Source: a virus (lineage: Duplodnaviria > Caudoviricetes). From it: a stretch of DNA of 64,000 bases. The position numbers and the translations under genes are program-made. Of this stretch, positions 22,497-54,107 are shown in pieces; positions within the stretch are counted from its first letter, which is position 1, and every line of letters starts with the position of its first letter. Below the pieces are notes generated by a model. That model ran no database searches. It was not told the DNA's origin and saw only the letters and a program-made list of their open reading frames with translations. Where the stretch lies: the IMG/VR virus record IMGVR_UViG_3300014208_000023, positions 364,321 through 428,320 of that record; one strand, written 5' to 3'.

Positions 22497-22570
22497 TAGT
22501 GACCTGTCCAGGGATCGAGTCTGGATTACCTTACCGAAGTAAAGCGTTCTGAACATTAAACTAACAGGCC
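22497..22570 (-). ncRNA. tRNA-Glu-like UUCG RNA, copy 8
   Basis: Identical to copy 3 over 76 nt (22499-22574 vs 5767-5842); ends CTA instead of CCA. Confidence 0.85.
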
Positions 22571-31693: not shown

Positions 31694-32064
31694 TTCGATT
31701 CGCGTTTGGCAAAAGGAATTGCTTCTAGCTCACAAATTGCAGCCCACCGATTGAACTTTTCGGTTTCAGCCCTAGCAATTATTCCAGATAGCATTCTGAA
31801 TCCAAGTCCAAGCATGGCTGATCCGTAAATGAATAGCGCTCCCTGAAGTAATGGTAAAAAGAACGGGATCGGATAGTTATTGCCGACTAGGTAAAGAATC
31901 ATTAACATGAGGCCGCACGAAATGCCATATGAGAAAAACACCCTAAACATTAGGCTCTTATGCTGGCGGCGATGGTGTTCTACCATAATTGCTGCATTGG
32001 CATATCTAGAGGTAAAGGTATGAAGAGTATTTTGTCCGCTAAAACGTGAGGCATCCATATTCAT
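31690..32064 (-). CDS. membrane protein (start uncertain)
   Basis: Two TM segments in C-terminal part; track ORF extends into deaminase gene. Confidence 0.55.
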   Translation of the reverse strand: MNMDASRFSGQNTLHTFTSRYANAAIMVEHHRRQHKSLMFRVFFSYGISCGLMLMILYLVGNNYPIPFFLPLLQGALFIYGSAMLGLGFRMLSGIIARAETEKFNRWAAICELEAIPFAKRESK

Positions 32065-32383
32065 TAGGTCCAATAGTGTAATAAACTCTTTTAACATAAG
32101 CCCTGCGAAGAGATCGCTCGCAATCCTTACAAGGCTTGGACATTGCCCAAATACCATCCTTGGTAGTTCGAGCCACAAAGACAGTGGCTCCCCTATCAAG
32201 CTTACGACAAAGCCGACCTTCTGAATGGTGGGCCGGCGTAGGGAACTTGGGCGCTCCGTTACAAGACCTAACGATAGCTCCGTCTCCTCGGACAGCAATA
32301 CTGCCAACGCGGAAATGCCTATCGTCCTCCTTCATGTGGGAAATAACGACGGCCTCATCGAGCATTTTAGTAATACTTTTCAT
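32039..32383 (-). CDS. Zn-dependent cytidine/deoxycytidylate deaminase-fold protein
   Basis: HHSEGRL (HxE) and SKPCKDC (PCxxC), VKRVYYT. Confidence 0.85.
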   Translation of the reverse strand: MKSITKMLDEAVVISHMKEDDRHFRVGSIAVRGDGAIVRSCNGAPKFPTPAHHSEGRLCRKLDRGATVFVARTTKDGIWAMSKPCKDCERSLRRAYVKRVYYTIGPNEYGCLTF

Positions 32384-32391
32384 TTTTTAAT

Positions 32392-32463
32392 TGGTTGTCA
32401 GGTAGGGAATTGCACCCTAGCTCCAGCCCTAGATGGCTAGGAGCACAATCTAGTGCCCTGACA
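32392..32463 (-). ncRNA. tRNA-like RNA with 4-nt loop in place of anticodon (CCA encoded)
   Basis: TGTCAGG GCAC TAGATT GTGC T CCTAG CCAT CTAGG GCTGGAGC TAGGG TGCAATT CCCTA CCTGACA A CCA. Confidence 0.7.
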
Positions 32464-32469
32464 CATAGT

Positions 32470-32497
32470 ATCATAACCACCGTTGCCGTCGTGTCAA
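32470..32497 (-). promoter_or_regulatory. sigma70-type promoter with -35 inside a 12-bp inverted repeat
   Basis: TTGACA-16-TATGAT; GTTGCCGTCGTG 32482-32493 / CACGACGGCAAC 32503-32514. Confidence 0.8.
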
Positions 32498-32631
32498 GGG
32501 CCCACGACGGCAACAAGAAGCGTGCCAGCGGAATTACTTCAGATATTTTTTAGCAACATCCAAAAGCTCCCACACTATAATTCCGCAAAGCCATCCCCAT
32601 GAAAATGCTTCTGATCTAACCATCTCCCACA

Positions 32632-32883
32632 TTAGAGGACAGCCTTTAGGATGCTTTGAAGCAAAGTATCATCGCTATCTGCAATTTTTCTTACAGAAGT
32701 AAGATCGTTTTCCTCAACAGAAATCTCGTATTCCATACCGTCTGGATTGCTAGTTCCCGCCGGCCAGTCCTTACTAACTATCATCCTGGCCTCCTCCATA
32801 AGAAGAGGGTCTTCTGTATCTAAAACCTTCGCCGGCATCTGAATCCCGGCGAACCCACTACTACGCTTGACTGTAATTTTCAT
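32632..32883 (-). CDS. emfourin-like (protealysin inhibitor) protein
   Basis: MKITVKRSSGFAG...PDGMEYEISVE, immediately downstream of M4 protease. Confidence 0.75.
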   Translation of the reverse strand: MKITVKRSSGFAGIQMPAKVLDTEDPLLMEEARMIVSKDWPAGTSNPDGMEYEISVEENDLTSVRKIADSDDTLLQSILKAVL

Positions 32884-32896
32884 TTTTAGCCTTCTT

Positions 32897-33991
32897 TCAT
32901 TTAATCCCAAGCTTGTAAAAAACTCGCGTATAGGGCTTGAAGATATGGTGCGTCGGAACAACTCCAACACTCTTCCAGGCTTCGCGAACTGCCTTATACT
33001 CTACACCAGTTCCGTAAAGCTCAATGGCGGTTTGAGTAGTGGCGTCCGCCATCTCCTTGAAATTGGAGCGCTCATTAAGCTTTGGTCCGGTAAGGGTCTC
33101 ATACCAGATTTTGCCAGTCTTTTCCCAGGCATAACCGCCGATATTGATCGCCGCCTCGTGGAAGGCCTTGTTAGGAATGCCGGAGTTGATATGGACTCCA
33201 CCATTGTCGTCTCCTCCAGTGTAAAGATCCTTCATGTGGGCCGGCTGACGATCCTTGCCGATGACCTTATCGTCATAAGCAGTGCCAGGCGCTTTCATAG
33301 AACGAATACCTACTCCGTTAATCTTATCGGTGAATAGACCTTCACCGATAATCCAATTGGCTTTATCAGCAGTCTGATTGCCAACGTGCTGTTTTACCAG
33401 CGATCCGAACACGTCAGAGAAGTGTTCATTAAGGGCTCCAGACTGGCCATAATATTCCAGTCCAGCCGTGTGCTCCGTTACACCATGAGTAAGCTCGTGG
33501 GCAACAACATCTAGAATTGTGAAGGGATTGAAAATCTCACCATCACCGTCGCCATAAGTCATCGAGCGTCCATTCCAAAACGCATTGGGATACTTGTGGC
33601 CAAAATGGACTGTCGAATGAAGGTGGAATCCCTTGTTATCAATTGAGTCTCGCTTGAAAAACTTCCTGAAGAACTCGTGGGTATGGCCAGAGAAATCATA
33701 AGCCTCATCAACCTGCTTGTCGCCCTTTGACCTCGTGCCTTCTTCTCGAACTACCTTACCAGGAAGAGACTGGCGATTCTCTGCATCATAGACCGTCCTG
33801 GCAATCTGGCCAGCTCTGCTGAGATACGGATCGGTATTACGTTCGGCCTTAAACCTTCCATCTGCCGCTCCTTCATTAAGGAGGAGGCCGGGAACATCAG
33901 AAATGAGGGGCTGAATAAAAAGCTTTCCAATTTCGGCAGGGGCATTGGCGAAAATAGTGCGAGCCATATACGAAGGAATGATTAGACACAT
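32897..33991 (-). CDS. M4 metalloprotease, protealysin type
   Basis: N-terminal CLIIPSYM propeptide, NAFWNG, VAHELTHGV, GALNEHFSD, DNGGVHINSGIPN. Confidence 0.93.
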   Translation of the reverse strand: MCLIIPSYMARTIFANAPAEIGKLFIQPLISDVPGLLLNEGAADGRFKAERNTDPYLSRAGQIARTVYDAENRQSLPGKVVREEGTRSKGDKQVDEAYDFSGHTHEFFRKFFKRDSIDNKGFHLHSTVHFGHKYPNAFWNGRSMTYGDGDGEIFNPFTILDVVAHELTHGVTEHTAGLEYYGQSGALNEHFSDVFGSLVKQHVGNQTADKANWIIGEGLFTDKINGVGIRSMKAPGTAYDDKVIGKDRQPAHMKDLYTGGDDNGGVHINSGIPNKAFHEAAINIGGYAWEKTGKIWYETLTGPKLNERSNFKEMADATTQTAIELYGTGVEYKAVREAWKSVGVVPTHHIFKPYTRVFYKLGIK

Positions 33992-40025: not shown

Positions 40026-40112
40026 TGGCTCACTGGGCAGGGATCGAACCTGCGTTAGGATTGCTCCGTTACGGGTTAACAGCCCGCTGCCTGGCCTCTA
40101 GGCTACCAGTGA
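40026..40112 (-). tRNA. tRNA-Asn(GUU) with long (17-nt) variable arm, CCA encoded
   Basis: TCACTGG/CCAGTGA G CCA; GCGGG CT GTT AA CCCGT; variable AACGGAGCAATCCTAAC. Confidence 0.85.
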
Positions 40113-40144
40113 TCGTATTCAGCTTTTAAGGTGCTGCAACCTAG

Positions 40145-40227
40145 TACCGATGGTCGGACTTGAACCGACAAGCTTTTTAGGGCGGAAGATTTTGAGTCTC
40201 CAGTGTTTGCCATTTCACCACATCGGC
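40145..40227 (-). tRNA. tRNA-Leu(CAA)
   Basis: GCCGATG/CATCGGT A; TGGAGA CT CAA AA TCTTCC; long variable arm. Confidence 0.9.
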
Positions 40228-40253
40228 GTACGAAACTTATATATCCTAACTTA

Positions 40254-40463
40254 TCACAATCTATGATGAGCCATTATTATGGCAATCAATCTCACCCAGA
40301 CATCATCCTCTGATCCATAACACTTACTGAACTCACGAATATTACGCCCTCCTCCTTTGCTATCGTAGCTTCCGATGTAACTGAATCTTCCAGATAACAA
40401 TAATGGCTTATATCTTTCAATCAAAGTTTTACATAACCTTGATGGCGGAGGAACTGTGCTCAT
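40254..40463 (-). CDS. C-K-T-I family protein (start uncertain)
   Basis: RLCKTLIERYKP. Confidence 0.65.
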   Translation of the reverse strand: MSTVPPPSRLCKTLIERYKPLLLSGRFSYIGSYDSKGGGRNIREFSKCYGSEDDVWVRLIAIIMAHHRL

Positions 40464-40466
40464 GTC

Positions 40467-40495
40467 AATATAATACTCATTGGCGGTTTTGTCAA
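40467..40495 (-). promoter_or_regulatory. possible sigma70-type promoter
   Basis: TTGACA-17-TATATT. Confidence 0.5.
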
Positions 40496-40517
40496 GTGGC
40501 GCGCGGTCGATTTTCAA

Positions 40518-40808
40518 TTACCAAGCATTAAAAGTAATGCGTATATAATTTGAACTCGTCACCGCTCCGCTTCCAAAATACGCATTACTTGCTGTAGATT
40601 TTTTTATTGAAATAAGATAATTATTAAATCTTGTTTCTCTTTCTTCTTTAGGGAAGATTTTACTATCGCTGAACATGGCGGACTTAAGTGTAGATTGGCC
40701 TTCTGGAAGATAGAAGCCATACCAATGGTAACATCCGACATATCTAATAGCAACTTCACCAACTCGTGGCTTGTAAAGCTTATCTATTGTTTTGCAGAAA
40801 TTGCTCAT
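40518..40808 (-). CDS. C-K-T-I family protein
   Basis: FCKTIDKLYKP...FNNYL. Confidence 0.75.
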   Translation of the reverse strand: MSNFCKTIDKLYKPRVGEVAIRYVGCYHWYGFYLPEGQSTLKSAMFSDSKIFPKEERETRFNNYLISIKKSTASNAYFGSGAVTSSNYIRITFNAW

Positions 40809-40986
40809 TGCGTTTGTTCCGATAATTCTTAACCAAGATTTTATTGAAAGCTACTTCTGCTTTTTCAAAATCTGCTTGTTTTAGAAAAAAATAATCGCTA
40901 ATATATCTTGTGGTCCCTACAAATCCACCGCTGGTAGAAAATATTATTGGGTCACAGTATTGTTTTATTTTTTTACAGTAAGTCAT
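40780..40986 (-). CDS. C-K-T-I family protein
   Basis: YCKKIKQYCDP...FNKIL. Confidence 0.75.
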   Translation of the reverse strand: MTYCKKIKQYCDPIIFSTSGGFVGTTRYISDYFFLKQADFEKAEVAFNKILVKNYRNKRNEQFLQNNR

Positions 40987-41270
40987 GTGACCGTTTTTCC
41001 ACAGGTATCACACTTCAAGCTAGAGCCTATTTGATTATAGGATCCATATACTGCACATATTGCACAGTATCTATGATAATAGGTGCTATTAGTGATGCCG
41101 CTAACTAGCCACTTATTAAAAATGGCCATTCTTTTTTCTGGGTCCGGTTCGGTGCCCAACATCACACTGTTCAGGTTGCCGGCGACAAGAAAGTAACCAA
41201 CATAACTTTTGGCTGATTTTCTTATCGAAACAATTGGGCTATATTTTTTCTTTATTGTAGCGCAGAACAT
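40983..41270 (-). CDS. C-K-T-I family protein
   Basis: FCATIKKKYSP...FNKWL. Confidence 0.75.
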   Translation of the reverse strand: MFCATIKKKYSPIVSIRKSAKSYVGYFLVAGNLNSVMLGTEPDPEKRMAIFNKWLVSGITNSTYYHRYCAICAVYGSYNQIGSSLKCDTCGKTVT

Positions 41271-41271
41271 A

Positions 41272-41520
41272 TTATGTTCCCCAAACCATCGTTCCAGATT
41301 TCATCTTGGCGTCAGCAAAAATACTCATTATTAATTCGTCTTGTTTGTAGCGTTCAATGAGCCATTTATTAAACTCTACCCTGGCATCATCTAGATTAGT
41401 TATGCTGGCCGGAGAGCGTCGGCTTTTCTCTATGCCATCGATATAATAGAAGCCATATGTTCGGCCCATTATCGATACGACTGATGGCGAGTATTTTTCT
41501 TTAATAGTTTTGCAGAACAT
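41272..41520 (-). CDS. C-K-T-I family protein
   Basis: FCKTIKEKYSP...FNKWL. Confidence 0.75.
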   Translation of the reverse strand: MFCKTIKEKYSPSVVSIMGRTYGFYYIDGIEKSRRSPASITNLDDARVEFNKWLIERYKQDELIMSIFADAKMKSGTMVWGT

Positions 41521-41711
41521 TATTTCTTCTCAAACTTATCCCAAAGATATTTTCCTATATAACACCCAGCCTCTTCCATTGAAGCTATAGTTAATGGTAA
41601 GGTTTTATACCTTTTACTATTTTCTGATGGACTATAAGAAATATAGTATGATATGGAATCCTTATGAATTGACACATCATATTTCTTAACTATAGTTTTG
41701 CAGATTGCCAT
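41520..41711 (-). CDS. C-K-T-I family protein
   Basis: ICKTIVKKYDV...IGKYL. Confidence 0.7.
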   Translation of the reverse strand: MAICKTIVKKYDVSIHKDSISYYISYSPSENSKRYKTLPLTIASMEEAGCYIGKYLWDKFEKK

Positions 41712-41717
41712 TTTATT

Positions 41718-41801
41718 TGGTGGGACGTGATTGATTCGAACAATCTTCCGTTAAAAGACCAGTTGTACAATCTGGTAGCTTGCCATCAGCCCATACGTCC
41801 C
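41718..41801 (-). tRNA. tRNA-Tyr(GUA), atypical anticodon arm, CCA encoded
   Basis: GGGACGT/ACGTCCC A CCA; CCAGA TT GTA CA ACTGG (A31.A39 mismatch, C37); long variable arm. Confidence 0.75.
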
Positions 41802-41806
41802 GTTAT

Positions 41807-42085
41807 CTAGTAATGAATGTCGTTGTCGTTGTCGTATTCGTAGTCATCAATGTCGTCATAATCATCATCATCATCATCATCTTCGTAATCTGGATCAATT
41901 TTTGAGAGCCACTTATTGAATATCTTTGTGGCATCCTCGTGCGAAAAATTCCCATAACCTATGTAGTGAGAACGCGCCCTGCCATTTAATTCGTACTCTC
42001 CGACCCAATTTGGAGTCTTGGTTTCACAAGCAGGATCACTATAAACAACTGGCCTATAGAGATCTTTAATCGTCTTGCAAAACAT
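41807..42085 (-). CDS. C-K-T-I family protein with acidic tail
   Basis: FCKTIKDLYRP...FNKWL...poly-Asp. Confidence 0.75.
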   Translation of the reverse strand: MFCKTIKDLYRPVVYSDPACETKTPNWVGEYELNGRARSHYIGYGNFSHEDATKIFNKWLSKIDPDYEDDDDDDDYDDIDDYEYDNDNDIHY

Positions 42086-42090
42086 AAGTC

Positions 42091-42420
42091 CTACTCTACT
42101 ATGCCAATCGCCTTCAATACCGTAAGAACAGTTCTAGTATTAATGCCTCTATCCAAAACAAAGACTTGGGTATCGTCGGGATGCAATTCCCCGGCATCCC
42201 ATACTTTCCTTGCCTCATCGCAGGCCTCCAGCAATTCCGTGGCTTTACTCTCGACCGACGAAGGGGCCGAGGATCCCGCGTCGTATGCTGCCTCTAGTGC
42301 TGCCTTTATGCCCCAAACACTAACGTCATGGAAGTCTAGACCATCTGACTTTTGCGTTTCAAGTGTTTCAATGTGAAGCTTGGCTTGAGCTATATTGGTT
42401 AGCGTTTCGTTTTTATTCAC
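42091..42420 (-). CDS. DUF6900-like protein
   Basis: LHIETLETQKSDGLDFHDVSVWGIKAALEAAYDAG; start likely GTG 42420. Confidence 0.75.
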   Translation of the reverse strand: MNKNETLTNIAQAKLHIETLETQKSDGLDFHDVSVWGIKAALEAAYDAGSSAPSSVESKATELLEACDEARKVWDAGELHPDDTQVFVLDRGINTRTVLTVLKAIGIVE

Positions 42421-42848
42421 TGCCTTACTTTCGGTGAAGAACGACGACGCACCATAACTTCGCACTCTGCCGATAATACGGCAGCATTTATTACATGCGC
42501 AATTTCTCTTGCCTTGTATCCGCTAGCCACATACGATTCTATGATTGGCATGATAGCATTATGGGCGGCGTCATCTATCTCTCGCGCCATGTCAGTCCAT
42601 GCTTCATTAGCTCCAAACATAGATTTGGATTGTGGCGCTGAATTGCTTACAGATATCGGCAACCATTGTTCTGGATTGCCACGATAACATTCAATAATCT
42701 TACATTTACCGAACTTTTTCTCCAACTCATCGCAAGCCAAAGAATAGTTGTAATTATACAATGTCGCTGATTTCTCTTTTTTAGAGCCAACTAATGTGAA
42801 TTTGAATCTCCAACCTATTTTCATAGTTATCCTAAAAAAGAAACTCAT
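42417..42848 (-). CDS. hypothetical protein
   Basis: 143 aa. Confidence 0.6.
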   Translation of the reverse strand: MSFFFRITMKIGWRFKFTLVGSKKEKSATLYNYNYSLACDELEKKFGKCKIIECYRGNPEQWLPISVSNSAPQSKSMFGANEAWTDMAREIDDAAHNAIMPIIESYVASGYKAREIAHVINAAVLSAECEVMVRRRSSPKVRQ

Positions 42849-43200
42849 CGTTAATATCGGCTACTACTACCGGCTCTTTCATTGCTGATGAAGCCCTATA
42901 GGTCACTCCAGTTCCAGCAGTCTTTAGGGCTATCTTACAATAGGCCTCGGTAATCAAGGAGTCAAGCCTATCAACGCACATTTTCTTATCGCCAGTAAGA
43001 TACTGCGGCTTTATCTTAGCAACGAACCTTCTTGCTCCATCTAGATAGGCCCAAGCAATCCGCATATTTTTTAGATCGAAATCATGCTGGAAATTGAGGT
43101 GGAATCCCATACATTGAGAATGATGTCCCGCTAAAACGAAAGATGCGTCCCAGAATTGGGCGCGCAACTTTTCAAGCGCTATTGGTTCAAACTTGGACAT
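42832..43200 (-). CDS. hypothetical protein
   Basis: 122 aa. Confidence 0.65.
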   Translation of the reverse strand: MSKFEPIALEKLRAQFWDASFVLAGHHSQCMGFHLNFQHDFDLKNMRIAWAYLDGARRFVAKIKPQYLTGDKKMCVDRLDSLITEAYCKIALKTAGTGVTYRASSAMKEPVVVADINDEFLF

Positions 43201-43573
43201 TTAGCAATTCTCTGGGTTGCTTATCTTTGTGAAGTGCTTCGTTTAGCTCTATGATAAGAGAGCAGTGTTTAGCTCGAAGCTCTTCTTTTTTGCTTTCGTC
43301 TTGCTCATATAGCATTGAGTCACCAATAGCATCTATCTCTTTGACGGTGGATTCATACTTTGTTCCGCCCAATAAACTATATAGGCTTTGCAAATTGACC
43401 TCATATATCACTTCATTTCTTATGAGAGAACGAAGTCGGCTCATAGAATCGGCGTCATCTTTGAACTCAAGGTCTTGCTTTTCTTTATCTGAACGACGAC
43501 TAGATAAAAAAGTTATGGCAATATTGATTGCTACGATCAACACTATTGTGATTACGAGTTGTGATGTTGTCAT
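43187..43573 (-). CDS. membrane-anchored coiled protein
   Basis: N-terminal TM helix, 128 aa. Confidence 0.7.
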   Translation of the reverse strand: MTTSQLVITIVLIVAINIAITFLSSRRSDKEKQDLEFKDDADSMSRLRSLIRNEVIYEVNLQSLYSLLGGTKYESTVKEIDAIGDSMLYEQDESKKEELRAKHCSLIIELNEALHKDKQPRELLNVQV

Positions 43574-43585
43574 TGTTTTCTTTCG

Positions 43586-43670
43586 TGGGCATGATAGGAA
43601 TCGAACCTACACGGTATTTCTACCACGAGAACCTAAATCTCGCGCGGCTGCCTGGTTACGCCACATGCCC
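43586..43670 (-). tRNA. tRNA-Leu(UAG)
   Basis: GGGCATG/CATGCCC A; GCGAGA TT TAG GT TCTCGT; long variable arm. Confidence 0.9.
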
Positions 43671-43683
43671 AAATTTTTATTCG

Positions 43684-43762
43684 TGGAGCGTGAGGGAGTC
43701 GAACCCCCTAAGCAAAAAGCAGAGATTTACAGTCTCCTGTCCGACCGTTGGACTTACACTCC
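43684..43762 (-). tRNA. tRNA-Tyr(GUA)
   Basis: GGAGTGT/ACGCTCC A; GGAGA CT GTA AA TCTCT. Confidence 0.88.
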
Positions 43763-43772
43763 TAATATTCAA

Positions 43773-44033
43773 TCACCCCTCATAGCCGTGAATATAACCA
43801 GCAACCTTATTATGCAGATACTTTGCCAATACAAAAGGCGATGAAACAACCTTATAGGTCACAATCGCTAGATAGTATAACGCTACTATCGGCCAGAACG
43901 CCGACACCATTTCTGGCGGAGGAACATCGCCGCTATAAAGGCCCCATCCCCAATCTTTATAAAGTATTGGCGTGATAACGTATGTTGTTATACCAACAAT
44001 TATATAGCCCAATATAACTTCTATTCCTAGCAT
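43773..44033 (-). CDS. small membrane protein
   Basis: 86 aa, two TM segments. Confidence 0.65.
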   Translation of the reverse strand: MLGIEVILGYIIVGITTYVITPILYKDWGWGLYSGDVPPPEMVSAFWPIVALYYLAIVTYKVVSSPFVLAKYLHNKVAGYIHGYEG

Positions 44034-44320
44034 TTTTTATACACTTTCAAAATATAAGACGGGGTGATATATGATTCGTGAATTGGGACGCAATAGTCGC
44101 CAGCAAAAGACTTATCAGATATAACATCGGAAAAGTAATACATTAATTTAATTCTGGTATATTTGGATACCGCTATTACTGGAACCGTAACTCCCTCATA
44201 TAGCAAATTATAACGGCCATCAATAATGTATCTTCGCGGCACATCATTCGAGACGCAAATCTCTATCTCATCTCCGCTATCGGCTTTGGCGGCACAAGGA
44301 TGTATTGGCATCTTAATCAA
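44027..44320 (-). CDS. C-x6-GD family protein
   Basis: PCAAKADSGD...ILKVYKK; close paralog of 45024-45320. Confidence 0.75.
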   Translation of the reverse strand: MIKMPIHPCAAKADSGDEIEICVSNDVPRRYIIDGRYNLLYEGVTVPVIAVSKYTRIKLMYYFSDVISDKSFAGDYCVPIHESYITPSYILKVYKKC

Positions 44321-45027
44321 TCTTGAGCGGCAAATTTCTTTGCAAAGCTATCTTCAACGTGTGAATCATTGAAGCCCCAATCACTCATGCTGCGGTAGGA
44401 ATGAGTCAGCCTAACAAGGCTGTCCGATCTAATAAGATCGCAACTATATGGGATTCTCTCGCTTGCTATAATTACTTTATATTTTGAATCCGCTTTGAGC
44501 TTTGATATTATCCAATCTCTGAATACTTTCATAGTATGGTTGTAGTTTGGATCCTTGTTGAGATAAATGCCGGGATTTTTGTTTCCAGTATCTTTATACA
44601 CTCTCTCAATAAATAGGGCGTATTCTTTTGTGCTATAATCATATAGCACTCTAACTAGAGAGCGGCGCCTAAAGGAAATACCGTATGGTGTCATTTCGTT
44701 ATCTGAAATATAAACCATACCAAGAAACGGATCCGTTACTGAACCGACTAGATGATCTCTATGAGAGTTTTCCCAATGCATGCAAGAACAAACTCCACGC
44801 ATTGACATTGTTGCCAGATCCCAGAAGCCAGTAATGCCGCTTGAAGTGAAGCCGATGTATGCCGGCTTACCATCAAACTCAACGTCGCATTTCTCCAGAC
44901 AATTAGGAAGCCCTATGCTGGGGAATGGCTTTTCTATCTTTGAAATCTTATTAAAGATAGCATTATCTCTAATGAAGCCGGCGGTCTTCTTAAAGGTTCT
45001 ACTATTTTTTAGATCGCTAATTTTCAT
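44317..45027 (-). CDS. WDxxxMSMRGxxSCM family protein 2
   Basis: FWDLATMSMRGVCSCMHWENSHRDHLVGSVTDPF. Confidence 0.8.
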   Translation of the reverse strand: MKISDLKNSRTFKKTAGFIRDNAIFNKISKIEKPFPSIGLPNCLEKCDVEFDGKPAYIGFTSSGITGFWDLATMSMRGVCSCMHWENSHRDHLVGSVTDPFLGMVYISDNEMTPYGISFRRRSLVRVLYDYSTKEYALFIERVYKDTGNKNPGIYLNKDPNYNHTMKVFRDWIISKLKADSKYKVIIASERIPYSCDLIRSDSLVRLTHSYRSMSDWGFNDSHVEDSFAKKFAAQD

Positions 45028-45320
45028 TGTTTGCGTATTACTTTAAGTATAATTGAGGCCGTAACAAACTTTTCATGTATCGGCAGACAGAATGGTTCGC
45101 TAATCATTTCTCCACTACAAACAACATCTTTGTAGTAGTAAGTCTCTAAATGACAATCAATATCGCCATTGACCCCAACAACGGGAACCATTACTCTTTC
45201 GGTAGAAAGTTTAAATCGACCAACAACTTTATAACGTTCTGGTCCATTAGGAGTCTCAAACTCTATCTGGTCTCCAAGCTTTGCGTTAGCAGCACAAGGA
45301 TGCGGAAGAAACTTTTTCAT
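45024..45320 (-). CDS. C-x6-GD family protein
   Basis: PCAANAKLGD...ILKVIRK. Confidence 0.75.
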   Translation of the reverse strand: MKKFLPHPCAANAKLGDQIEFETPNGPERYKVVGRFKLSTERVMVPVVGVNGDIDCHLETYYYKDVVCSGEMISEPFCLPIHEKFVTASIILKVIRKQ

Positions 45321-45321
45321 A

Positions 45322-45666
45322 TTAGTTAGTAAAGTAAATTTCTTTTACGCCCTTAAAATCGTGACCTGATTCTATGAGCCACTGATCTACTTCAAGACAA
45401 TTCTCTTGAATGAAATCTTGGAGAGATCCCTTGAACCCATTGTCTTTACACTGGTCTTTCCAGTATTCTTCCATTGATTCTTTAGTATAGGTGTCGGAAT
45501 AATCTTCTTTGCCTGATGGATCAAACTCTGACCAGTGACGATTGATCTTACTTCTATGATATGCGTCGTCCTCTCTGATACGGTCTCTAACCTCTTCGGG
45601 ACACTTGCTTAAATCAATAGTGATTGACTTTACTTTTTTGACTTTGATTATTGGTAATGTTTTCAT
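45322..45666 (-). CDS. hypothetical protein
   Basis: 114 aa, ATG directly after tRNA-Ile. Confidence 0.7.
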   Translation of the reverse strand: MKTLPIIKVKKVKSITIDLSKCPEEVRDRIREDDAYHRSKINRHWSEFDPSGKEDYSDTYTKESMEEYWKDQCKDNGFKGSLQDFIQENCLEVDQWLIESGHDFKGVKEIYFTN

Positions 45667-45669
45667 GGG

Positions 45670-45743
45670 TGGGACGTGGAGGACTCGAACCTCCGACCTT
45701 CGCCTTATCAGAGCGACTATCTAACCAACTGATATAACGTCCC
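45670..45743 (-). tRNA. tRNA-Ile(GAU)
   Basis: GGGACGT/ACGTCCC A; TCGCT CT GAT AA GGCGA; GGAGG TTCGAGT CCTCC. Confidence 0.92.
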
Positions 45744-45750
45744 TAGTAAC

Positions 45751-45820
45751 TGCTCTCGGTTGGGTTTCATACCAACATCAGCACCATTTGGTGGCGCTAC
45801 TTTGTTAAGACGACGAGAGC
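45751..45820 (-). ncRNA. degenerate/atypical tRNA-like RNA
   Basis: GCTCTCG/CGAGAGC A acceptor; AGCGCCA CCAAA TGGTGCT (7 bp + 5-nt loop); GTTGG TATGAAAC CCAAC T-like arm. Confidence 0.6.
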
Positions 45821-45826
45821 ATATCT

Positions 45827-46261
45827 TTATTGTTCTTTAATCCAAGCTCTAGGTATTCTTTCCGTTGGCTTACCGAAAAATACTAATGAAGCAGAGAATG
45901 AGTTCTTCATCGGTGAATATGAATGAATCACTTCCTTGCGACAAATATATGGTATGAACGGATATCTTATGTGTTTACTTATAACCTGAACTGCACTTTG
46001 GCCGTCCCTAAAAATATCTAGGCGCTCTTTGTCAGTAGAGGACCTGCAGCGATAGATTGGAATTGATCCATCAACTTCCTTGAATCTATACTCAACGAAT
46101 CGACCCCATAACGGTAGAGATATAAACCATGTTCTATGGTCGTGTGGATCGCTTCTGTCCGGTCGATTAGAGGCCCAGGTATGAAGTCTTAATCTTGCGC
46201 CATTCTTAAACTGATGTATAAGGCGTACCACGAATCCATTAGGATGATTAGTAACATTCAT
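45827..46261 (-). CDS. cupin-fold protein (cysteine dioxygenase-like)
   Basis: LRLHTW...DPHDH...GRFVE...VIHS. Confidence 0.7.
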   Translation of the reverse strand: MNVTNHPNGFVVRLIHQFKNGARLRLHTWASNRPDRSDPHDHRTWFISLPLWGRFVEYRFKEVDGSIPIYRCRSSTDKERLDIFRDGQSAVQVISKHIRYPFIPYICRKEVIHSYSPMKNSFSASLVFFGKPTERIPRAWIKEQ

Positions 46262-46283
46262 CGTTTATGATATATCATCAATT

Positions 46284-46475
46284 ATGGCCGAACGAATTAC
46301 TTCATGCCCAGAATGCAAAAATAGATTTCCTGATGTTATCGAGGTTCATAACCCAGAAACAACTGATATGAATTGTAGAGTAACCTTTAAGTGTGATGAA
46401 TGTCAGCACACCTGGGAAGGATTAGACTCATCCCCGCACTATAAAGAAATGCGGGAACGAGGCTATATCATATGA
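46284..46475 (+). CDS. small Zn-ribbon protein (antisense orientation)
   Basis: CPEC...FKCDECQHTW; fills gap between divergent and convergent neighbours. Confidence 0.75.
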   Translation: MAERITSCPECKNRFPDVIEVHNPETTDMNCRVTFKCDECQHTWEGLDSSPHYKEMRERGYII

Positions 46476-46478
46476 ATC

Positions 46479-46811
46479 TCAGGTCTTAAGAAGCTTGGTG
46501 AGCTTCATGGCGAGCATCTGATTGCCCGCCAGCTTAAGCTTACCGCTGAAGAACATTCCCATAGCCTTGCCGGGATCCGACATGAGGGCCTGAAAATTTT
46601 CAGATGAGATCGTGATGGTGCAGTCCGCTTTGCCCTGGCCCGCCTTAACGGAAGGCCCCTTTGAGGTCGCGTCAATAAACCACTCTCCCTCTCCGGTAAC
46701 ATTTACCTGAAAGCTAGCATTAACCTCACGAACTTCCTTCGACTTGGAAGCTAGGGCGGCGGGAAGGGTGGTTTCAAATAGCTCACGAATGTTCATTTTT
46801 TTTTTATTCAC
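46479..46811 (-). CDS. SCP2 sterol/lipid-binding domain protein
   Basis: FQVNVTGEGEWFID...ADCTITIS...MGMFFSGKLKLAGNQMLAMKL. Confidence 0.9.
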   Translation of the reverse strand: MNKKKMNIRELFETTLPAALASKSKEVREVNASFQVNVTGEGEWFIDATSKGPSVKAGQGKADCTITISSENFQALMSDPGKAMGMFFSGKLKLAGNQMLAMKLTKLLKT

Positions 46812-46863
46812 TTTGTTGAAAGAGTGTGGTTAATTGTCTTTATAAAAGATAAGCAGGCTATAT

Positions 46864-47160
46864 TTATACTGTATTTTCCATAGCGGCACGATCAAGAGCG
46901 GCGCTTAATTTGCCCTTTATTACTAAAGCAGAAGTCCATCTTGCGAGTCTTTTTACTACATCAAGATCGATATTAAGCTGCAAGCTTTCTGCCAAAAACC
47001 ATTCGCCAGTAAGAATGGAAAATGGAGCATCATCTCTGCAATATAGTTTGCCGTCTTCGCCCATCCCCCATTGCCATTCTGAATGGAGCGAATAGGTTCT
47101 CTTACGGAACTTTGCTCCGTATTCTGGGTCTTTAAGAACGGCTACTATATTAGTTTTCAT
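46864..47160 (-). CDS. hypothetical protein
   Basis: 98 aa. Confidence 0.65.
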   Translation of the reverse strand: MKTNIVAVLKDPEYGAKFRKRTYSLHSEWQWGMGEDGKLYCRDDAPFSILTGEWFLAESLQLNIDLDVVKRLARWTSALVIKGKLSAALDRAAMENTV

Positions 47161-47390
47161 CTGAAATACTTGGGGTCGTTAGCTTCAACTGCCCCCATTA
47201 GAAGAGATACGTGACGCTGGCAAGTTATGATTGCTTTGGATAGACCAAAGAACGCTTGCTCTTGAGAGGTGCCTACAAATTTTGGAAGCTTGGACTTAAT
47301 TACCTCAAGCTCATTTAGCTTTGATTCAGCCTTCTCAAGAAGATCATAAACATTTTCTACTTTTACTTTTGAATCAATCGTTGAGGCCAT
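47157..47390 (-). CDS. hypothetical coiled protein
   Basis: 77 aa. Confidence 0.65.
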   Translation of the reverse strand: MASTIDSKVKVENVYDLLEKAESKLNELEVIKSKLPKFVGTSQEQAFFGLSKAIITCQRHVSLLMGAVEANDPKYFR

Positions 47391-47570
47391 ACTAAAAATT
47401 CCTTTAGTTTTTGGGAAGCGGCATTCCTATGCCGCCTTCTATATTTGAAATAGCTTCTTCAAGACGAAGTTTAGTGTCAGCATCTTCAGTCTCAGCAAGC
47501 TCACGAAAGTATTTCGTTACATCTTGTTCTAGAAGATACCTGCGCCCCATCATAGTAATGAATTTGATAT

Positions 47571-48032
47571 TCATTCTTTTGAATGAGTATCAGCCTCAAC
47601 TACTTCGGTTTTCTTCTTGGCAAAAGTCTTGTGAAAGAAACGAAGAGTCTTATCGGCTGCCGGAATGATCGTTTCATTCATAGCCTTATTGACTACCGGC
47701 TTTACCGTCTCGACTGCTTTGGTGGCTGCTGGAATGATATTCTTATTGATCATTCTGCTTATAACTGAACCCTTCATGGCTTTAATCGCTTTCTCTGTTT
47801 GTCGGCGTTCAACATGCTGATACGCCATTTTGTTTTCCTGATAAGCCGCCTCAAGATTTGAGAGCGTCGTATCATACTCTGCACTATGCAAAGTATCCGT
47901 TTGAAGAATCTGTAGCAGTCCAACTACCTGCTTGACGTAAGGTAGATCCTTATCGTTGAAATGATGGTAAGGCTTAAGCATCCAATACTCAAGAGAATTG
48001 AGTGCCGACTTCATTTCTGCATTTACCAACAT
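47571..48032 (-). CDS. hypothetical protein
   Basis: 153 aa. Confidence 0.65.
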   Translation of the reverse strand: MLVNAEMKSALNSLEYWMLKPYHHFNDKDLPYVKQVVGLLQILQTDTLHSAEYDTTLSNLEAAYQENKMAYQHVERRQTEKAIKAMKGSVISRMINKNIIPAATKAVETVKPVVNKAMNETIIPAADKTLRFFHKTFAKKKTEVVEADTHSKE

Positions 48033-48247
48033 AAATAAAACTTTCTGCTCTCTTCTAATTCTTGCTGTCTGTTAAAGATTTCAACTTGCTTGCCGGCCAG
48101 ATCACAATCTTTCGATATGAGCAACCAGTTTTCAATGTCAGAGTAAGGTCCCATATCGCCATTTAATAGAATGGCGCCACAAGAAACGCACTCTTTATAT
48201 GCGTCTCCAAAACATGGAATCTCTGCTCCGTATTTATGTTCCTTCAT
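48023..48247 (-). CDS. small Zn-binding hypothetical protein
   Basis: HKY...ECVSCG; start revised to ATG 48247. Confidence 0.65.
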   Translation of the reverse strand: MKEHKYGAEIPCFGDAYKECVSCGAILLNGDMGPYSDIENWLLISKDCDLAGKQVEIFNRQQELEESRKFYLCW

Positions 48248-48255
48248 CTTAAACC

Positions 48256-48283
48256 AATATAAGCACTGTCGTTGCGTTGTCAA
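48256..48283 (-). promoter_or_regulatory. sigma70-type promoter
   Basis: TTGACA-16-TATATT. Confidence 0.7.
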
Positions 48284-48565
48284 GCTCTGCCGTAACGAAG
48301 TTCAGCAGAAAATTAATTACCAACCATCTACTAACCGAGCGAGCGGGTTCCGTTTAGATATACCGAATAGAGAGACCTCTATGCTTTTGTAGGCGTCTTT
48401 TATCTGTTGTGCTCTATCATGTTCTTTATTTTGATAGCAACCGTTCTCAATTTAATGAGGAGGCCATTGGAATACACGGCAGGAAGATTGGAAATGCCTT
48501 ATTGTAGCGATAGATTACTCTACAATATCCGATACATCAAGGGGCTGGCTGGACCCCTGTAGTCT

Positions 48566-49405
48566 TCAATTAGCTTCCTTACAACACCTACCGCCAATTT
48601 CGTAGAATGCAAATGATTCATTATGAACTGTGGTCATAGGACGGCACCTATTCCTAGCGCCCATAGCCCAATGTCCGCCCTTCTCTCCGCTCTTATACGG
48701 AGAGCCAGAAGAGTTGATTACGCTTTCATCAACATTACCAGTCATATCATATACTCCGAAAGGAGAGACGCACCCTGGCTTTGAACCAGAAGGAACTCTT
48801 TGTGAGAGTCTATCAACTTCTGCCTGACGAGTAGCCGGATTAGATAGCTTGCCGCCATCAAACGCTCGCCATGCATTGTCAATGTTGCATGTTCCAGGGT
48901 CTCTATTCAGGCCGTAAGGATACGGTAGGGCATCTTCGCCTTCGCAAGCAAACTCCCACTCAACATCCTTGCAAAGTCTTTTACCTTCTGCGGCACACTT
49001 GACGGCCATCTCATTCCAAGTAACCATAACCTCCGGAATTGCTCCGAGCTTATTTGGATACTCGAACTTATCAATACAAAAGCTCATTGCCTTCTTTTGT
49101 TTTGATAGGCATTTGGTGGGCGCAAACTCTAGACACCTTACCTTGCCATTAACATTGATTACTTTCTCGTCCCACTTAAGACAAGTCTGCTCTACAACGG
49201 GGCAGTAGTTTCCGCTAACAAGAACCATATCATCAGGGCAGAAGTTAGGTGGCGCCCATCCAACAACTACCTGGCCATATGGCGATACATCAGAAATGGA
49301 TTCTGACGGTGCGCAGCTAGTTGGATTGCTGCCATTCGTTTTTGGCACAACACCATTAGAACACGCAATAACAATCGACAACAGGGCGATACCTACATAC
49401 TTCAT
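48566..49405 (-). CDS. formylglycine-generating enzyme (FGE-sulfatase) fold lipoprotein
   Basis: Lipobox IVIAC; CPDDMVLV, FCIDKFEYP, KRLCKDVEWEFAC, YPYG, GVYDMTGNVDE, GGRCC. Confidence 0.85.
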   Translation of the reverse strand: MKYVGIALLSIVIACSNGVVPKTNGSNPTSCAPSESISDVSPYGQVVVGWAPPNFCPDDMVLVSGNYCPVVEQTCLKWDEKVINVNGKVRCLEFAPTKCLSKQKKAMSFCIDKFEYPNKLGAIPEVMVTWNEMAVKCAAEGKRLCKDVEWEFACEGEDALPYPYGLNRDPGTCNIDNAWRAFDGGKLSNPATRQAEVDRLSQRVPSGSKPGCVSPFGVYDMTGNVDESVINSSGSPYKSGEKGGHWAMGARNRCRPMTTVHNESFAFYEIGGRCCKEAN

Positions 49406-49425
49406 AAGCTTCCAGCCTCACTTCT

Positions 49426-49782
49426 TTAGCAGCAGTCACAATATAGATTGAGTATCTTTAGAGTTTCTTTACCATCATACTCTTTGATTTGGTAATGATC
49501 ATTATCATTCATCTCCTCAATCTTTATTGAGGCACATTCTCCGTTGGCCGAATCTCCCAACTCTTCTATCGCTTGAATTAGAATGGGGTCGTGTCTTTTG
49601 ATTGCTGGCTTTGGATCTTCCAAATAAACTGTTTTCCAGTGGCAGTCATGCTTGGACTGTAGCAGGTCCAATTCTTTCTTTTTTAGAATGGCGTCGGAAT
49701 GGCCTAGCTCAATCATCCTATCAAGAACTGCGTGTGATATTCCAAATCCACCATACTTATTGTTATATGCTACTTTTTTCAT
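49426..49782 (-). CDS. conserved phage hypothetical protein
   Basis: KVAYNNKYGGFGIS...RHDPILIQAIEELG...YQIKEYDGKE. Confidence 0.75.
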   Translation of the reverse strand: MKKVAYNNKYGGFGISHAVLDRMIELGHSDAILKKKELDLLQSKHDCHWKTVYLEDPKPAIKRHDPILIQAIEELGDSANGECASIKIEEMNDNDHYQIKEYDGKETLKILNLYCDCC

Positions 49783-50036
49783 TAGATGCTATAGAATTTA
49801 AAGTGAATGATATTAAGATGCCTTACCATTATATCTCTGACAATCTTCCAGTCCCATTTTTTTCTATACCAAGGAATAGAAATGTGTTCTACATAGGCCT
49901 TTAGAAAATCTCCAAGAGGAGCGTCATGTAGGTAGCCATCTCTTTTGAAGGGCGGGCGGCCAGGTAGATTTACTATTTCGCAATCCACTTTACACGGGCC
50001 GACTTTCCATCTAGTATTTAATTCATCTAATGTCAT
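49782..50036 (-). CDS. hypothetical protein
   Basis: 84 aa. Confidence 0.6.
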   Translation of the reverse strand: MTLDELNTRWKVGPCKVDCEIVNLPGRPPFKRDGYLHDAPLGDFLKAYVEHISIPWYRKKWDWKIVRDIMVRHLNIIHFKFYSI

Positions 50037-50037
50037 T

Positions 50038-50262
50038 TTAGAAAGTTGCCCACTTCGTCATTAGTGACGGACGATGACTGCACTTATCTTTGCAGGGACC
50101 AAGAACATTGGGATTGTTTTTGGATGTTGTGCATATCCAAAAGTAATAGCACTGATCGCATATCCATCTTCCATCAACTGCCTGGGCGTGACTCAAATCC
50201 GTTCTTTCTTCGCCACTAAACACATCCAAAGTATCACAGTAGTCGCAAAATCCGTTTTTCAT
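50038..50262 (-). CDS. Cys-rich Zn-binding protein
   Basis: CDYC...WICDQC. Confidence 0.65.
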   Translation of the reverse strand: MKNGFCDYCDTLDVFSGEERTDLSHAQAVDGRWICDQCYYFWICTTSKNNPNVLGPCKDKCSHRPSLMTKWATF

Positions 50263-50600
50263 TATGTGGCGCGGCCTTTATGATTGGTTGGTTTATGGGC
50301 ACTAATTGTTTGAAACTTAATGCCGGGCGTAGTGCTCAAATGATTTCCAAGCTGGCAGGACTTACCCTTATTGAAACCACTATTGTTACGCCAGAAAGCA
50401 ATGTAGCGACTTTTATCGGACTCTGACTCAAACTTTAGAATCGTAGCTTGAGCTTGCTTACCATCGGCAGCTTGGACGCCGGCATACCTAACTGCTGGCT
50501 CGTCAGAACAATCTGGACAGTCGGTAATCAAACCTCCCGCCAATTTCTTGGCAGGAGAGTTTGGATCGAATTCCATTTGACAGTGAACGCAGATTCTCAT
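50262..50600 (-). CDS. Zn-ribbon hypothetical protein
   Basis: CVHC...CPDC. Confidence 0.7.
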   Translation of the reverse strand: MRICVHCQMEFDPNSPAKKLAGGLITDCPDCSDEPAVRYAGVQAADGKQAQATILKFESESDKSRYIAFWRNNSGFNKGKSCQLGNHLSTTPGIKFQTISAHKPTNHKGRAT

Positions 50601-50604
50601 TCTA

Positions 50605-50952
50605 TTAGTATGAGCAGTGGCATTGCATAACGGATACAGACTCTACAACGCGGGACTCGGCCATAGAGCAATTATACTCATTAAGAGCTTCTTGCTGACA
50701 GCGCTTATAGCGGGAGAGCGAGCCCGGGGAATTGTGATACTTGTCACACAGGAAGGTGCAGCAAAGCGCTGGTACAGTCTGTTGTAGGCGGAGGACGGGG
50801 CACCTTTCCGGCATATCGGTCACTGGTTCTGGCGGTCTTGGAGACGGAGGTGCAGGGCTGCATCCAGCGTATCCACAATATGCTACAAGCAGAGCGGAAG
50901 AGATTAGCGGCATTACCACATCATTGAATTTATTGTTCATGCCCAACTCCAT
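50605..50952 (-). CDS. Cys-rich putative lipoprotein
   Basis: Hydrophobic N-terminus, AGC, Pro linker, 8 C-terminal Cys. Confidence 0.6.
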   Translation of the reverse strand: MELGMNNKFNDVVMPLISSALLVAYCGYAGCSPAPPSPRPPEPVTDMPERCPVLRLQQTVPALCCTFLCDKYHNSPGSLSRYKRCQQEALNEYNCSMAESRVVESVSVMQCHCSY

Positions 50953-51025
50953 AGTTTGTGAAAGCTAGCAATACCCCAGAATAGAACTAGGGCGGCGGCC
51001 ATTACCGGAAAATAGATAATCTTTT

Positions 51026-51556
51026 TCATAGTGAATTTTTCTTATCTAGCCAATCTAGACATTCTTTGTGGTTATTGATCGCGACTTTATCTTCATTGCC
51101 ATAACTCCATATTTTATGGGAAGATGACTGTTTATCTTTTGCGCACTGATAAAAAGTAACCCAATGATTTTTGGGGGCTTCCTTACGAGTAGTGACTACA
51201 TACGGATCGGAATGATGCTCCAAACTAGTAAGGCCATACTTAATAGACAATCGTAGCTTTTCATTCTCCCTGAACCGGCGGGTAACTGCGTATCTCTTAT
51301 CAACGGATAACTTCCAATAATCTTGGATAGAGAGATCGAACTCCTTTAATGCCTCTCTCTCATCCCACATAAGAGAGGAGAGTGCGCTAGCCCAATATGC
51401 TTTGGTTGAGTTCAGTATCTTTTCAAGGTCTTTTAGAAATTGCTGGCAAGCAAGATAATTACTTGCGGTCTGCGTTCCATCTAGAAAACCTCTTTGAGAG
51501 CCGGCATTCCAAATTTCAACATCGCGACGCCAAGACTCATCAGATGGATTAATCAT
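51026..51556 (-). CDS. hypothetical protein
   Basis: 176 aa. Confidence 0.7.
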   Translation of the reverse strand: MINPSDESWRRDVEIWNAGSQRGFLDGTQTASNYLACQQFLKDLEKILNSTKAYWASALSSLMWDEREALKEFDLSIQDYWKLSVDKRYAVTRRFRENEKLRLSIKYGLTSLEHHSDPYVVTTRKEAPKNHWVTFYQCAKDKQSSSHKIWSYGNEDKVAINNHKECLDWLDKKNSL

Positions 51557-51849
51557 TATTTACTAGGCTCAGTTACTTTTGTAACAACGTTATGAAGCGC
51601 CATTTTATAGATGGCATAATTGAATCCTTCGCGATAGCCCAGATCGTATTGTGGAGCGAATGCTGCCTTAAACGCTTCGCTTTCAGAAGGTCCCTTGGTA
51701 GAAATTACCCCGTTTCTAAAGCCAATAGAAAACATCTCGCTTTTGTCTTTAAGCAATCTGGTTATCTGTTCGGCATATAGATGGTATAGATCGGTAAATC
51801 TAACGGTCATTTGGACTCGTAAATATTGTCTTGGAGAAGAGGACGGCAA
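51556..51849 (-). CDS. hypothetical protein
   Basis: 97 aa. Confidence 0.6.
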   Translation of the reverse strand: MPSSSPRQYLRVQMTVRFTDLYHLYAEQITRLLKDKSEMFSIGFRNGVISTKGPSESEAFKAAFAPQYDLGYREGFNYAIYKMALHNVVTKVTEPSK

Positions 51850-51984
51850 GGTATCGATCGCACCTTGCCGTCCAAAACATCTAGAGCATGATCAAGGGTT
51901 TCATCAGGCTCCTCATACTTTTCTCTAAAGTACGAGATAAGTCGCGCCCTCTCTTGGTTCCAGGTTTCTCTTCTCACGGTAGGA

Positions 51985-53074: not shown

Positions 53075-53078
53075 GTCT

Positions 53079-54015: not shown

Positions 54016-54031
54016 TGTTTATTTCTTATAG

Positions 54032-54107
54032 TGGGCCCACCCGGACTTGAACCGGGAACCGTCGCCTTATGAGGGCGCTGCTACTAACCAAATTGAGCTA
54101 TAGGCCC
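54032..54107 (-). tRNA. tRNA(CAU), probably Ile2 (lysidine-modified)
   Basis: GGGCCTA/TGGGCCC A with C4-G69 and C5-G68; GCGCC CT CAT AA GGCGA; tilS 1 kb away. Confidence 0.8.

Follow-up and report, generated by a model that had tools for sequence, protein, structure and literature searches.

A tRNA-shaped element without a decoding loop at the predicted transcript start of a phage deaminase operon

Small tRNA-like folds with a shortened, non-decoding anticodon arm are known as mascRNA and menRNA, from MALAT1 and NEAT1, and are excised by the enzymes that process tRNA ends. The t-elements of plant mitochondria are non-canonical tRNA-like cloverleaves in the 5' leaders of mRNAs, where RNase Z/RNase P cuts release an RNA that persists with a CCA tail (Forner et al. 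2007, PMC1920247, which cites Hanic-Joyce et al. 1990 on t-elements). Transfer-messenger RNAs (tmRNAs) that lack a coding sequence (CDS) and consist only of the tRNA-like domain (TLD) occur in mycobacteriophage DS6A, in jakobid mitochondria and in some plastids, and that of DS6A is reported to inhibit host tmRNA (PMC11915505). Here we describe a 72-nt tRNA-shaped element in a 64,000-nt stretch of phage DNA (the window; G000:C1:364321-428320 of a 428,320-bp virus record with direct terminal repeats, IMGVR_UViG_3300014208_000023). The element lies at the predicted start of a deaminase operon transcript, on the minus strand, which carries nearly all genes of the window. It is real, its top half being truly tRNA-like and its bottom half remodelled. 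Its parts, in window coordinates and all on the minus strand, are the following.

32392..32463: the 72-nt tRNA-shaped element, from the sequence, the minimum free energy (MFE) fold and a strict-frame scan
32463-32457 / 32402-32396: acceptor stem UGUCAGG / CCUGACA, a perfect 7 bp
32456-32445: D region of 12 nt, mostly unpaired, with two to three weak pairs at most
32444-32420: 9-bp arm with one bulged U and the hexaloop AUCUAG, in the MFE fold
32419-32403: T arm UAGGG-UGCAAUU-CCCUA, a 5-bp stem with a 7-nt loop that abuts the acceptor
32395-32392: A73-CCA, encoded, directly after the 3' strand of the acceptor

In the MFE fold there are no linkers between the long arm and its neighbours, and a closed helix takes the position of anticodon arm and variable loop. 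An earlier note on this DNA, made from the letters alone, had described a tRNA body without a decoding loop, which both fold and sequence support, and its statements on the acceptor, A73-CCA and T arm all agree with the sequence. As the main fold it had drawn a cloverleaf with the helices GCAC/GUGC and CCUAG-CCAU-CUAGG, both of which can be drawn, and as an alternative a pairing of GCUCC(U)AGC with GCUGGAGC, which exists and extends to 9 bp. Both folds are thus available, but their order is the reverse of the one proposed: the fold with the 9-bp arm is the MFE structure at -31.4 kcal/mol, whereas the cloverleaf with the 4-nt loop lies 4.6 kcal/mol higher, at -26.8 kcal/mol, and its arm has a pair probability of 0. 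The competing folds arise from four CTAG palindromes within 34 nt (window 32417-32453). The genome has just one further cluster of this kind, at G000:100609-100648, which makes 2 observed versus 0.5 expected; the genome as a whole shows no depletion of CTAG. The three main helices comprise 21 pairs, every one of them Watson-Crick, and against dinucleotide shuffles the fold of the element gives a z of about -3. The T loop has U54, C56 and A58, with a G at position 55; position 8 is G, not U, and the D region, GCACUAGAUUGU, contains no GG and so no G18-G19 doublet.

A strict frame was defined as a perfect 7-bp acceptor and an abutting, perfect 5-bp T stem with a 7-nt loop, followed by NCCA. It occurs at three sites in the 428-kb genome, namely tRNA-Tyr, tRNA-Asn and the element, with 0.15 per genome in Markov shuffles. 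Among 17 promoter-like sites on the gene strand, the one before the element is alone in having a strongly structured leader from the predicted +1 onwards (z -4.9). The 13-mer of the T arm, searched as GGGTGCAATTCCC-N9-ACCA, matched at least 120 IMG/VR contigs; among the 120 matches listed, 55 lie inside (permuted) tmRNAs called by ARAGORN and 22 inside ordinary tRNAs, and the UGCAAUU T arm is, in these matches, the type commonest among viral-contig tmRNAs. Because the identical 13-mer recurs in many viral tRNAs and tmRNAs, the T arm, G55 included, reads as a genuine variant. Overall, the element stands moderately above chance.

With canonical tRNAs the element shares the 7-bp acceptor, the discriminator and the abutting 5-bp T stem with its 7-nt loop, but not the 5-bp anticodon stem and 7-nt loop, in place of which it has 9 bp and 6 nt in the MFE fold, or 5 bp and 4 nt in the alternative. 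The tRNA model RF00005 (family threshold 29 bits) gave no match to it at E<=10, either at 32200-32700 or across the whole genome. At default settings ARAGORN reports nothing here, and with -ps80 it calls a tRNA only in a different, shifted frame. Alignment with all tRNAs of the genome gave a best global score of 9.0, the mean of the shuffled null being 9.1, and model R1 had no second match in the phage genome that would be a paralogue. With no RF00005 match, no similarity to a tRNA and no paralogue, a canonical tRNA, or a pseudogene with a recognisable parent, was rejected. A 49-codon open reading frame (ORF) with a TTG start (32516-32367) overlaps the element and is non-coding, since indels in and just after the copy of the element in L066, a related wastewater phage, shift its frame. 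Other Rfam families gave only sub-threshold noise at the element.

A tmRNA origin was examined in the same way. The models of the tmRNA clan CL00001 gave no match at E<=10 at the locus, and a whole-genome RF00023 search was silent at the element. Its layout is that of a tmRNA TLD, with a stemless D region, one helix for the anticodon arm, a T arm and ACCA; the identity features of tmRNA are wanting, as the acceptor has U3-A70 and no G3.U70, and lacks the GGGG.../...CUCCACCA ends. The phage has a tmRNA of its own:

G000:C1:23012-23399, minus strand: phage tmRNA (RF00023, 80.7 bits), missed by ARAGORN

Descent of the element from this tmRNA was rejected, because its T arm and acceptor differ. 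Its ends are GGGGUCG.../...CGACUCCA, with G3.U70 present and CCA not encoded.

Searches for further copies by exact pattern found none in IMG/VR or in GTDB genomes, and blastn of phage records was empty. Model R1 had no match on the related megaphage record G001; on the megaphage record LR745208.1 it gave a match within a methyltransferase ORF (fold z -0.19), an unrelated tRNA-like RNA and weak noise. In the searches made, Rfam and the collections covered yielded no homologue of the element beyond the copy in L066. Its kind, a mimic of the tRNA top half that does not decode and lies within a transcript, is already known. What is new in this element is the position at a promoter start, and a layout like that of a tmRNA TLD without tmRNA identity. 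The unrelated RNA of LR745208.1, from a 485-kb uncultured phage, is 82 nt long and lies in a tRNA cluster (L071:1501-1582, plus strand; LR745208.1:175823-175904). It has canonical D and T arms and about 17 nt between the strands of the anticodon stem, either an intron or an expanded loop, and ARAGORN does not report it.

Like t-elements, the element combines an intact acceptor and T arm with no decoding, in an mRNA 5' leader near the start codon. It is a non-decoding cloverleaf within what would be a longer transcript, co-transcription being predicted from the promoter and from the lack of a terminator, and in this it also resembles the mascRNA type. Unlike t-elements, it is found in a phage/bacterial setting, its CCA is encoded, its T loop is UGCAAUU rather than of the GGTTCRANYCC type, and processing is here a prediction; moreover, as it begins at the (predicted) transcription start, no 5' cut would be needed. 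The mascRNA and menRNA folds differ from it in being eukaryotic, in lying at the 3' end of a long non-coding RNA and in having their CCA added rather than encoded.

The likeness to TLD-only tmRNAs extends to size, the 7-bp acceptor, a stemless D region of about 12 nt, a closed helix, few or no linkers, ACCA, and a T arm identical to that of TLDs in IMG/VR. Five such RNAs of 70-94 nt were found in IMG/VR contigs.

L143:2351-2420, minus strand: TLD-only RNA
L192:2300-2377, minus strand: TLD-only RNA
L085:6256-6349, plus strand: TLD-only RNA
L113:2196-2276, plus strand: TLD-only RNA
L101:1379-1456, plus strand: TLD-only RNA

They carry the ends GGGG.../...CUCCACCA, the UCGAC motif in the D loop, one closed helix and the T loop UGCAAUU, and have no mRNA-like part. 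Because of these tmRNA hallmarks we take them to be TLD-only tmRNAs, probably of the same kind as the CDS-less tmRNA of DS6A. The element, in contrast, lacks G3.U70 and the GGGG start, the UCGAC motif, the GGAC linker and any match to a tmRNA-clan model. With these hallmarks missing it cannot be called a tmRNA derivative, and the likeness is one of shape only.

Two further kinds of RNA with this T loop were seen in viral contigs. One is a 44-nt minihelix, GUUCCG ... UGGG-UGCAAUU-CCCA ... CGGAAC-ACCA, present in seven contigs (L087, L089, L096, L100, L151, L163 and L169; for example L087:9951-9994, plus strand), which corresponds to the top half of a tRNA without D or anticodon arm and is preceded by a GNRA-capped hairpin. 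The other is a 76-nt tRNA-like RNA (L077:9793-9868, minus strand; also in L165 and L179) with a 7-bp 'anticodon' stem and a loop of about 14 nt, on which ARAGORN is silent; its stemless D region and UGCAAUU T arm are as in the element.

Within the same phage, two other kinds of tRNA mimic likewise have an intact acceptor and T arm and a closed arm for the anticodon loop.

Window 7179-7249, 7575-7647 and 22500-22570: UUCG-tetraloop mimic family
G000:40620-40719: long-armed tRNA-Leu-like RNA

In the UUCG copies, as in the element, an ORF start codon follows 0-8 nt past the 3' end. The element differs from both kinds in being single-copy, in its degenerate D region and in its promoter start, and has no sequence similarity to them. 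Its unrelatedness to the UUCG family had been asserted in the earlier note and holds, the alignment scores being 3.0-6.5 (shuffled-null mean, 9.1). The UUCG family, for its part, has a canonical D arm and the T loop UUCGAUC, and reaches the threshold of the tRNA model (41.6 and 39.4 bits). A partial likeness was also found to the valine-type tRNA-like structure of tymoviruses (RF00233), in which the T arm, GGGUGCAA(C/U)UCCC, and the 3' ACCA align with high posterior probability. Only these parts align, at 22.4 bits and E 0.017, below the gathering score of 40, and the element has neither a pseudoknotted acceptor nor an anticodon-like loop, belongs to a DNA phage and is placed 5' rather than 3'.

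The element lies between a promoter and the first gene of a deaminase-SET operon. Its surroundings on the minus strand are as follows.

32534..32632: 32-aa small ORF MWEMVRSEAFSWGW..., the last of an upstream protease-inhibitor operon, its protein conserved in L064, L066 and L068
32482..32514: 12-bp perfect inverted repeat GTTGCCGTCGTG / CACGACGGCAAC with a 9-nt spacer, overlapping the -35 box
32470..32497: sigma-70-type promoter TTGACA-16-TATGAT, 11/12 match
32384..32391: AU-rich 8-nt spacer AUUAAAAA between CCA and ATG, without Shine-Dalgarno sequence; a candidate cleavage zone
32039..32383: 114-aa zinc deaminase (HxE ... PCxxC) of the cytidine/dCMP deaminase fold (PF00383, 31.9 bits)

The intergenic region with the element starts past the stop codon of the small ORF. 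U1 of the element is position 7 after the -10 box (6 nt between), and the predicted +1 falls at 32464-32462; the coincidence of 5' end and +1 that the earlier note had pointed out therefore stands, as does its placement of the deaminase ATG (32383) 8 nt after CCA. At the corresponding site, L004, L066, L067 and L068 have TTGACA-16-TATAAT, with diverged flanks, so the promoter is conserved in relatives. No terminator was found between the element and the ATG; since nothing separates the two, the element would be co-transcribed as the 5' end of the operon mRNA. The absent Shine-Dalgarno sequence was considered as a special feature and rejected, a clear one being wanting in most genes of the phage (motifs of this kind precede only about 25-38% of its long ORFs).

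The inverted repeat has one mismatch in its 3' arm in L066 and is absent from L004, L067 and L068; in the Rfam search it gave an incidental mir-28 alignment. From its position it may serve as an operator, or may be the hairpin that closes the protease operon upstream. Three diverged loci of relatives (L067:1405-1421, L068:133-149 and L004:2616-2632) share a perfect sigma-54 consensus, TGGCACG-N4-TTGCA, some 20 nt ahead of the sigma-70-type promoter. At window 32527-32509 three extra bases (TGGCACGCTTCTTGTTGCC) disrupt its spacing, and the 12-bp inverted repeat has the TTGCC of this site as its 5' arm.

To follow the element through related phages, loci were gathered by exact protein look-up, a metagenome scan, the members of the 90% cluster and one wastewater run aligned to the window; a 96%-identical contig of P0001, which begins 92 nt before the ATG, was left out of the leader comparison. 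The element is present in one of ten relatives whose deaminases are 76-95% identical, L066 (95%). The other loci are given below with the amino-acid identity of their deaminase.

L065 (93%): a methyltransferase gene abuts the deaminase; no element
L064 (91%): ATG about 15 nt past the stop codon of the small ORF; no element
L067 and L068 (89%): TTGACA-16-TATAAT promoter, then 36 plain bases; no element
L061-63 (88%): a methyltransferase gene abuts the deaminase; no element
L069 (87%): unrelated spacer or upstream context; no element
L004 (80%): TTGACA-16-TATAAT promoter, then 47 plain bases; no element
L006-9 (79%): unrelated spacer or upstream context; no element
L005 (76%): the upstream gene abuts; no element
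L003 (53%): no element
L001 (47%): no element

The copy in L066 (L066:504-574) is identical over the 72 nt except for the loss of one C of GCUCCUAG. Without this C the bulge is gone and the arm becomes a perfect 9-bp helix that includes a U-G pair, at -32.2 kcal/mol and a z of -3.45. The spacer behind it, UUUAAAAAA, has two changes from that of the window. The two sequences diverge by 3.2% over 32154-32527 (374 nt) and much more outside, with 1 change in the 72 nt of the element. Synteny of RNA and deaminase, singled out in the earlier note as a check, is thus kept in L066, but the other orthologous loci are without any tRNA-like RNA. That note had also held that a normal anticodon loop at orthologous loci would speak against its reading, a point which is moot because these loci carry no tRNA-like RNA at all. 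The region between the protease-inhibitor pair and the deaminase (window 32384-33000, compared with L004 and L061-L069; deaminases 80-95% identical) is a hotspot of gene flux, in which genes for a methyltransferase, a Band_7 protein and a NUMOD3 homing endonuclease, as well as small ORFs, are gained and lost. Because only L066 among the close relatives carries it, the element appears to be a recent, lineage-specific insertion or replacement in the leader of a conserved promoter.

Our preferred, though tentative, reading is that the element is a module for processing and stability in cis, cut by tRNA-end enzymes in the manner of t-elements. It would be a non-decoding, tRNA-shaped module forming the first 72 nt of the deaminase-SET operon transcript, whose start is predicted, and the host machinery for tRNA-end maturation would handle it as a tRNA. 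An endonuclease would cut in the AU-rich 8-nt spacer, exonucleases would trim to the CCA, and the CCA could be repaired by the host or by an enzyme of the CCA-adding family that the phage encodes:

G000:C1:234675-235067, minus strand: 565-aa protein of the PolyA_pol/CCA-adding family

The products would be a stable, CCA-ended small RNA and a deaminase mRNA with a very short leader; before cleavage, the stem starting at +1 may shield the 5' end of the mRNA. We infer the transcription start, the cleavage, the stability and any effect on expression. An intact acceptor, T arm, discriminator and CCA beside a rebuilt decoding half suggest a handle for tRNA-processing enzymes and not decay. The layout is also that of a tRNA gene in a tRNA-ORF cassette, with a start codon close behind the 3' end. 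Judging from the relatives, the module does not appear to be functionally tied to the deaminase.

Several observations weigh against this reading. With U8 and the G18-G19 doublet missing, a tRNA-like elbow is not assured. Promoter-like matches of 11/12 are about equally frequent on both strands, 17 on the gene strand and 15 on the other, so the promoter call rests on conservation and not on the match itself. The comparison of the window with L066 shows no excess conservation of the element over its flanks, and its single change at a flank divergence of 3.2% gives no sign of extra constraint; with two near-identical copies only, there is no covariation. Close relatives express the same operon without the element, so that any benefit must be dispensable. 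Finally, a simple hairpin would suffice for protection of the 5' end. The element is narrowly distributed, and a processing role is plausible but unproven. If the RNA is cut out and stable, bacterial viruses use tRNA-shaped mRNA punctuation of the sort known from mitochondria, and one megaphage would have evolved at least three unrelated anticodon-less tRNA mimics. Since relatives differ in the presence of the element behind the same promoter, they offer a natural comparison for mRNA ends, stability and translation.

A simpler arrangement, in which the fold stays on the mRNA as a 5'-terminal stabiliser or regulatory leader that blocks 5'-end-dependent decay, with the tRNA likeness incidental, is in our judgement unlikely. 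It would fit the 7-bp stem at the predicted +1, ahead of which no more than 1-2 nt are left unpaired at the 5' end, the great stability of the fold, and the position of the element, always upstream of the operon and never as a separate gene; 5'-terminal stem-loops, such as that of ompA, are known to stabilise bacterial mRNAs. Such a role, however, needs neither a four-way junction nor a true 7-nt T loop, an abutting T stem and an exact A-CCA, a tRNA frame is expected just 0.15 times per genome, and no other promoter of the phage has such a 5' structure.

Nor do we think it likely that the element has no function, whether as a tRNA or tRNA-like gene in decay, as a side effect of recombination at a hypervariable site, or as a fold that arose by chance. 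The occurrence in only two near-identical genomes, the absence from nine other close relatives, the lack of excess conservation and the gain and loss of genes upstream of the deaminase would all be expected in this case, and the chance expectation of 0.15 frames per genome is not negligible. Decay breaks helices, however, yet 21 of 21 pairs are Watson-Crick and the change in L066 perfects the long arm. The exact placement after a conserved promoter and on the gene strand, together with a bona fide T loop, also argues against it, and no tRNA is similar enough to be a recent source of decay.

It is distinctly unlikely that the released RNA acts in trans as a decoy, titrating a factor that reads the top half or elbow of tRNA, such as SmpB, EF-Tu, a tRNA-targeting defence nuclease or toxin, or a modification enzyme. 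Its layout does equal that of the 70-94-nt TLD-only tmRNA-like RNAs of IMG/VR contigs, its T arm is of the type most seen in viral-contig tmRNAs, a strong promoter would give a high copy number, and the same phage has two other kinds of anticodon-less tRNA mimic; the reported inhibition of host tmRNA by the CDS-less tmRNA of mycobacteriophage DS6A provides a precedent (PMC11915505). On the other hand, no tmRNA- or tRNA-clan model matches it, and it is without the G3.U70, GGGG/CUCCACCA acceptor, UCGAC D-loop motif and GGAC linker common to the mini-TLDs. Since a full tmRNA is encoded by the phage itself, blocking trans-translation would also seem counter-productive; no known target presents itself, and no SmpB or Ro60 gene was found in the phage genome. 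A more specific form, which we regard as improbable, would make the element a non-chargeable TLD look-alike or elbow mimic, abundant from an early promoter, released to titrate a host factor, and the third independent mimic in one megaphage. If so, mimicry of tRNA shape would be a broad and repeatedly invented phage strategy.

The earlier note had linked the RNA to the downstream deaminase as a possible partner, substrate or guide. The profile search with this protein reached cyanophage dCMP deaminase and TadA at similarly weak E-values, leaving it as close to TadA as to dCMP deaminases. Its AlphaFold model has a predicted local distance difference test (pLDDT) score of 84, and the best Foldseek matches are small cytidine and blasticidin-S deaminases. 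The match to TadA covers the core only, and at 114 aa the protein is without the C-terminal extension seen in TadA, whose solved chains have 159-171 aa. In about 5 of 54 distant loci a deaminase homologue is preceded, at about 0-100 nt, by a normal tRNA gene, which may leave a weak deaminase-tRNA lead. Despite this lead, the profile closeness to TadA, the several homologues within tRNA clusters and the immediate adjacency of RNA and gene, the link is highly improbable, as orthologues of 76-93% identity at nine loci are without the element and so can dispense with the RNA, small nucleoside deaminases are the nearest folds, and the RNA has no anticodon loop to present A34 or C.

Distant homologues of the deaminase at 36-50% identity (L032, L035, L044, L048, L049 and L058) often lie inside phage tRNA clusters, and the 3' end of a tRNA, in three cases tRNA-Ile(UAU), comes about 0-100 nt ahead of their start codon. 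Sequencing runs that match the DNA of the window are from groundwater metagenomes. Across the whole genome ARAGORN reports 16 tRNA-type genes, including two 'tRNA-???' with a UUCG-closed anticodon arm, and ORF start codons lie 0-24 nt past the 3' end of most of the tRNAs and tRNA mimics of the phage. Tight joins between tRNA and ORF are seen at window 40026-54107, such as ACC-C-ATG behind tRNA-Ile and ACCA-ATG behind a UUCG mimic.

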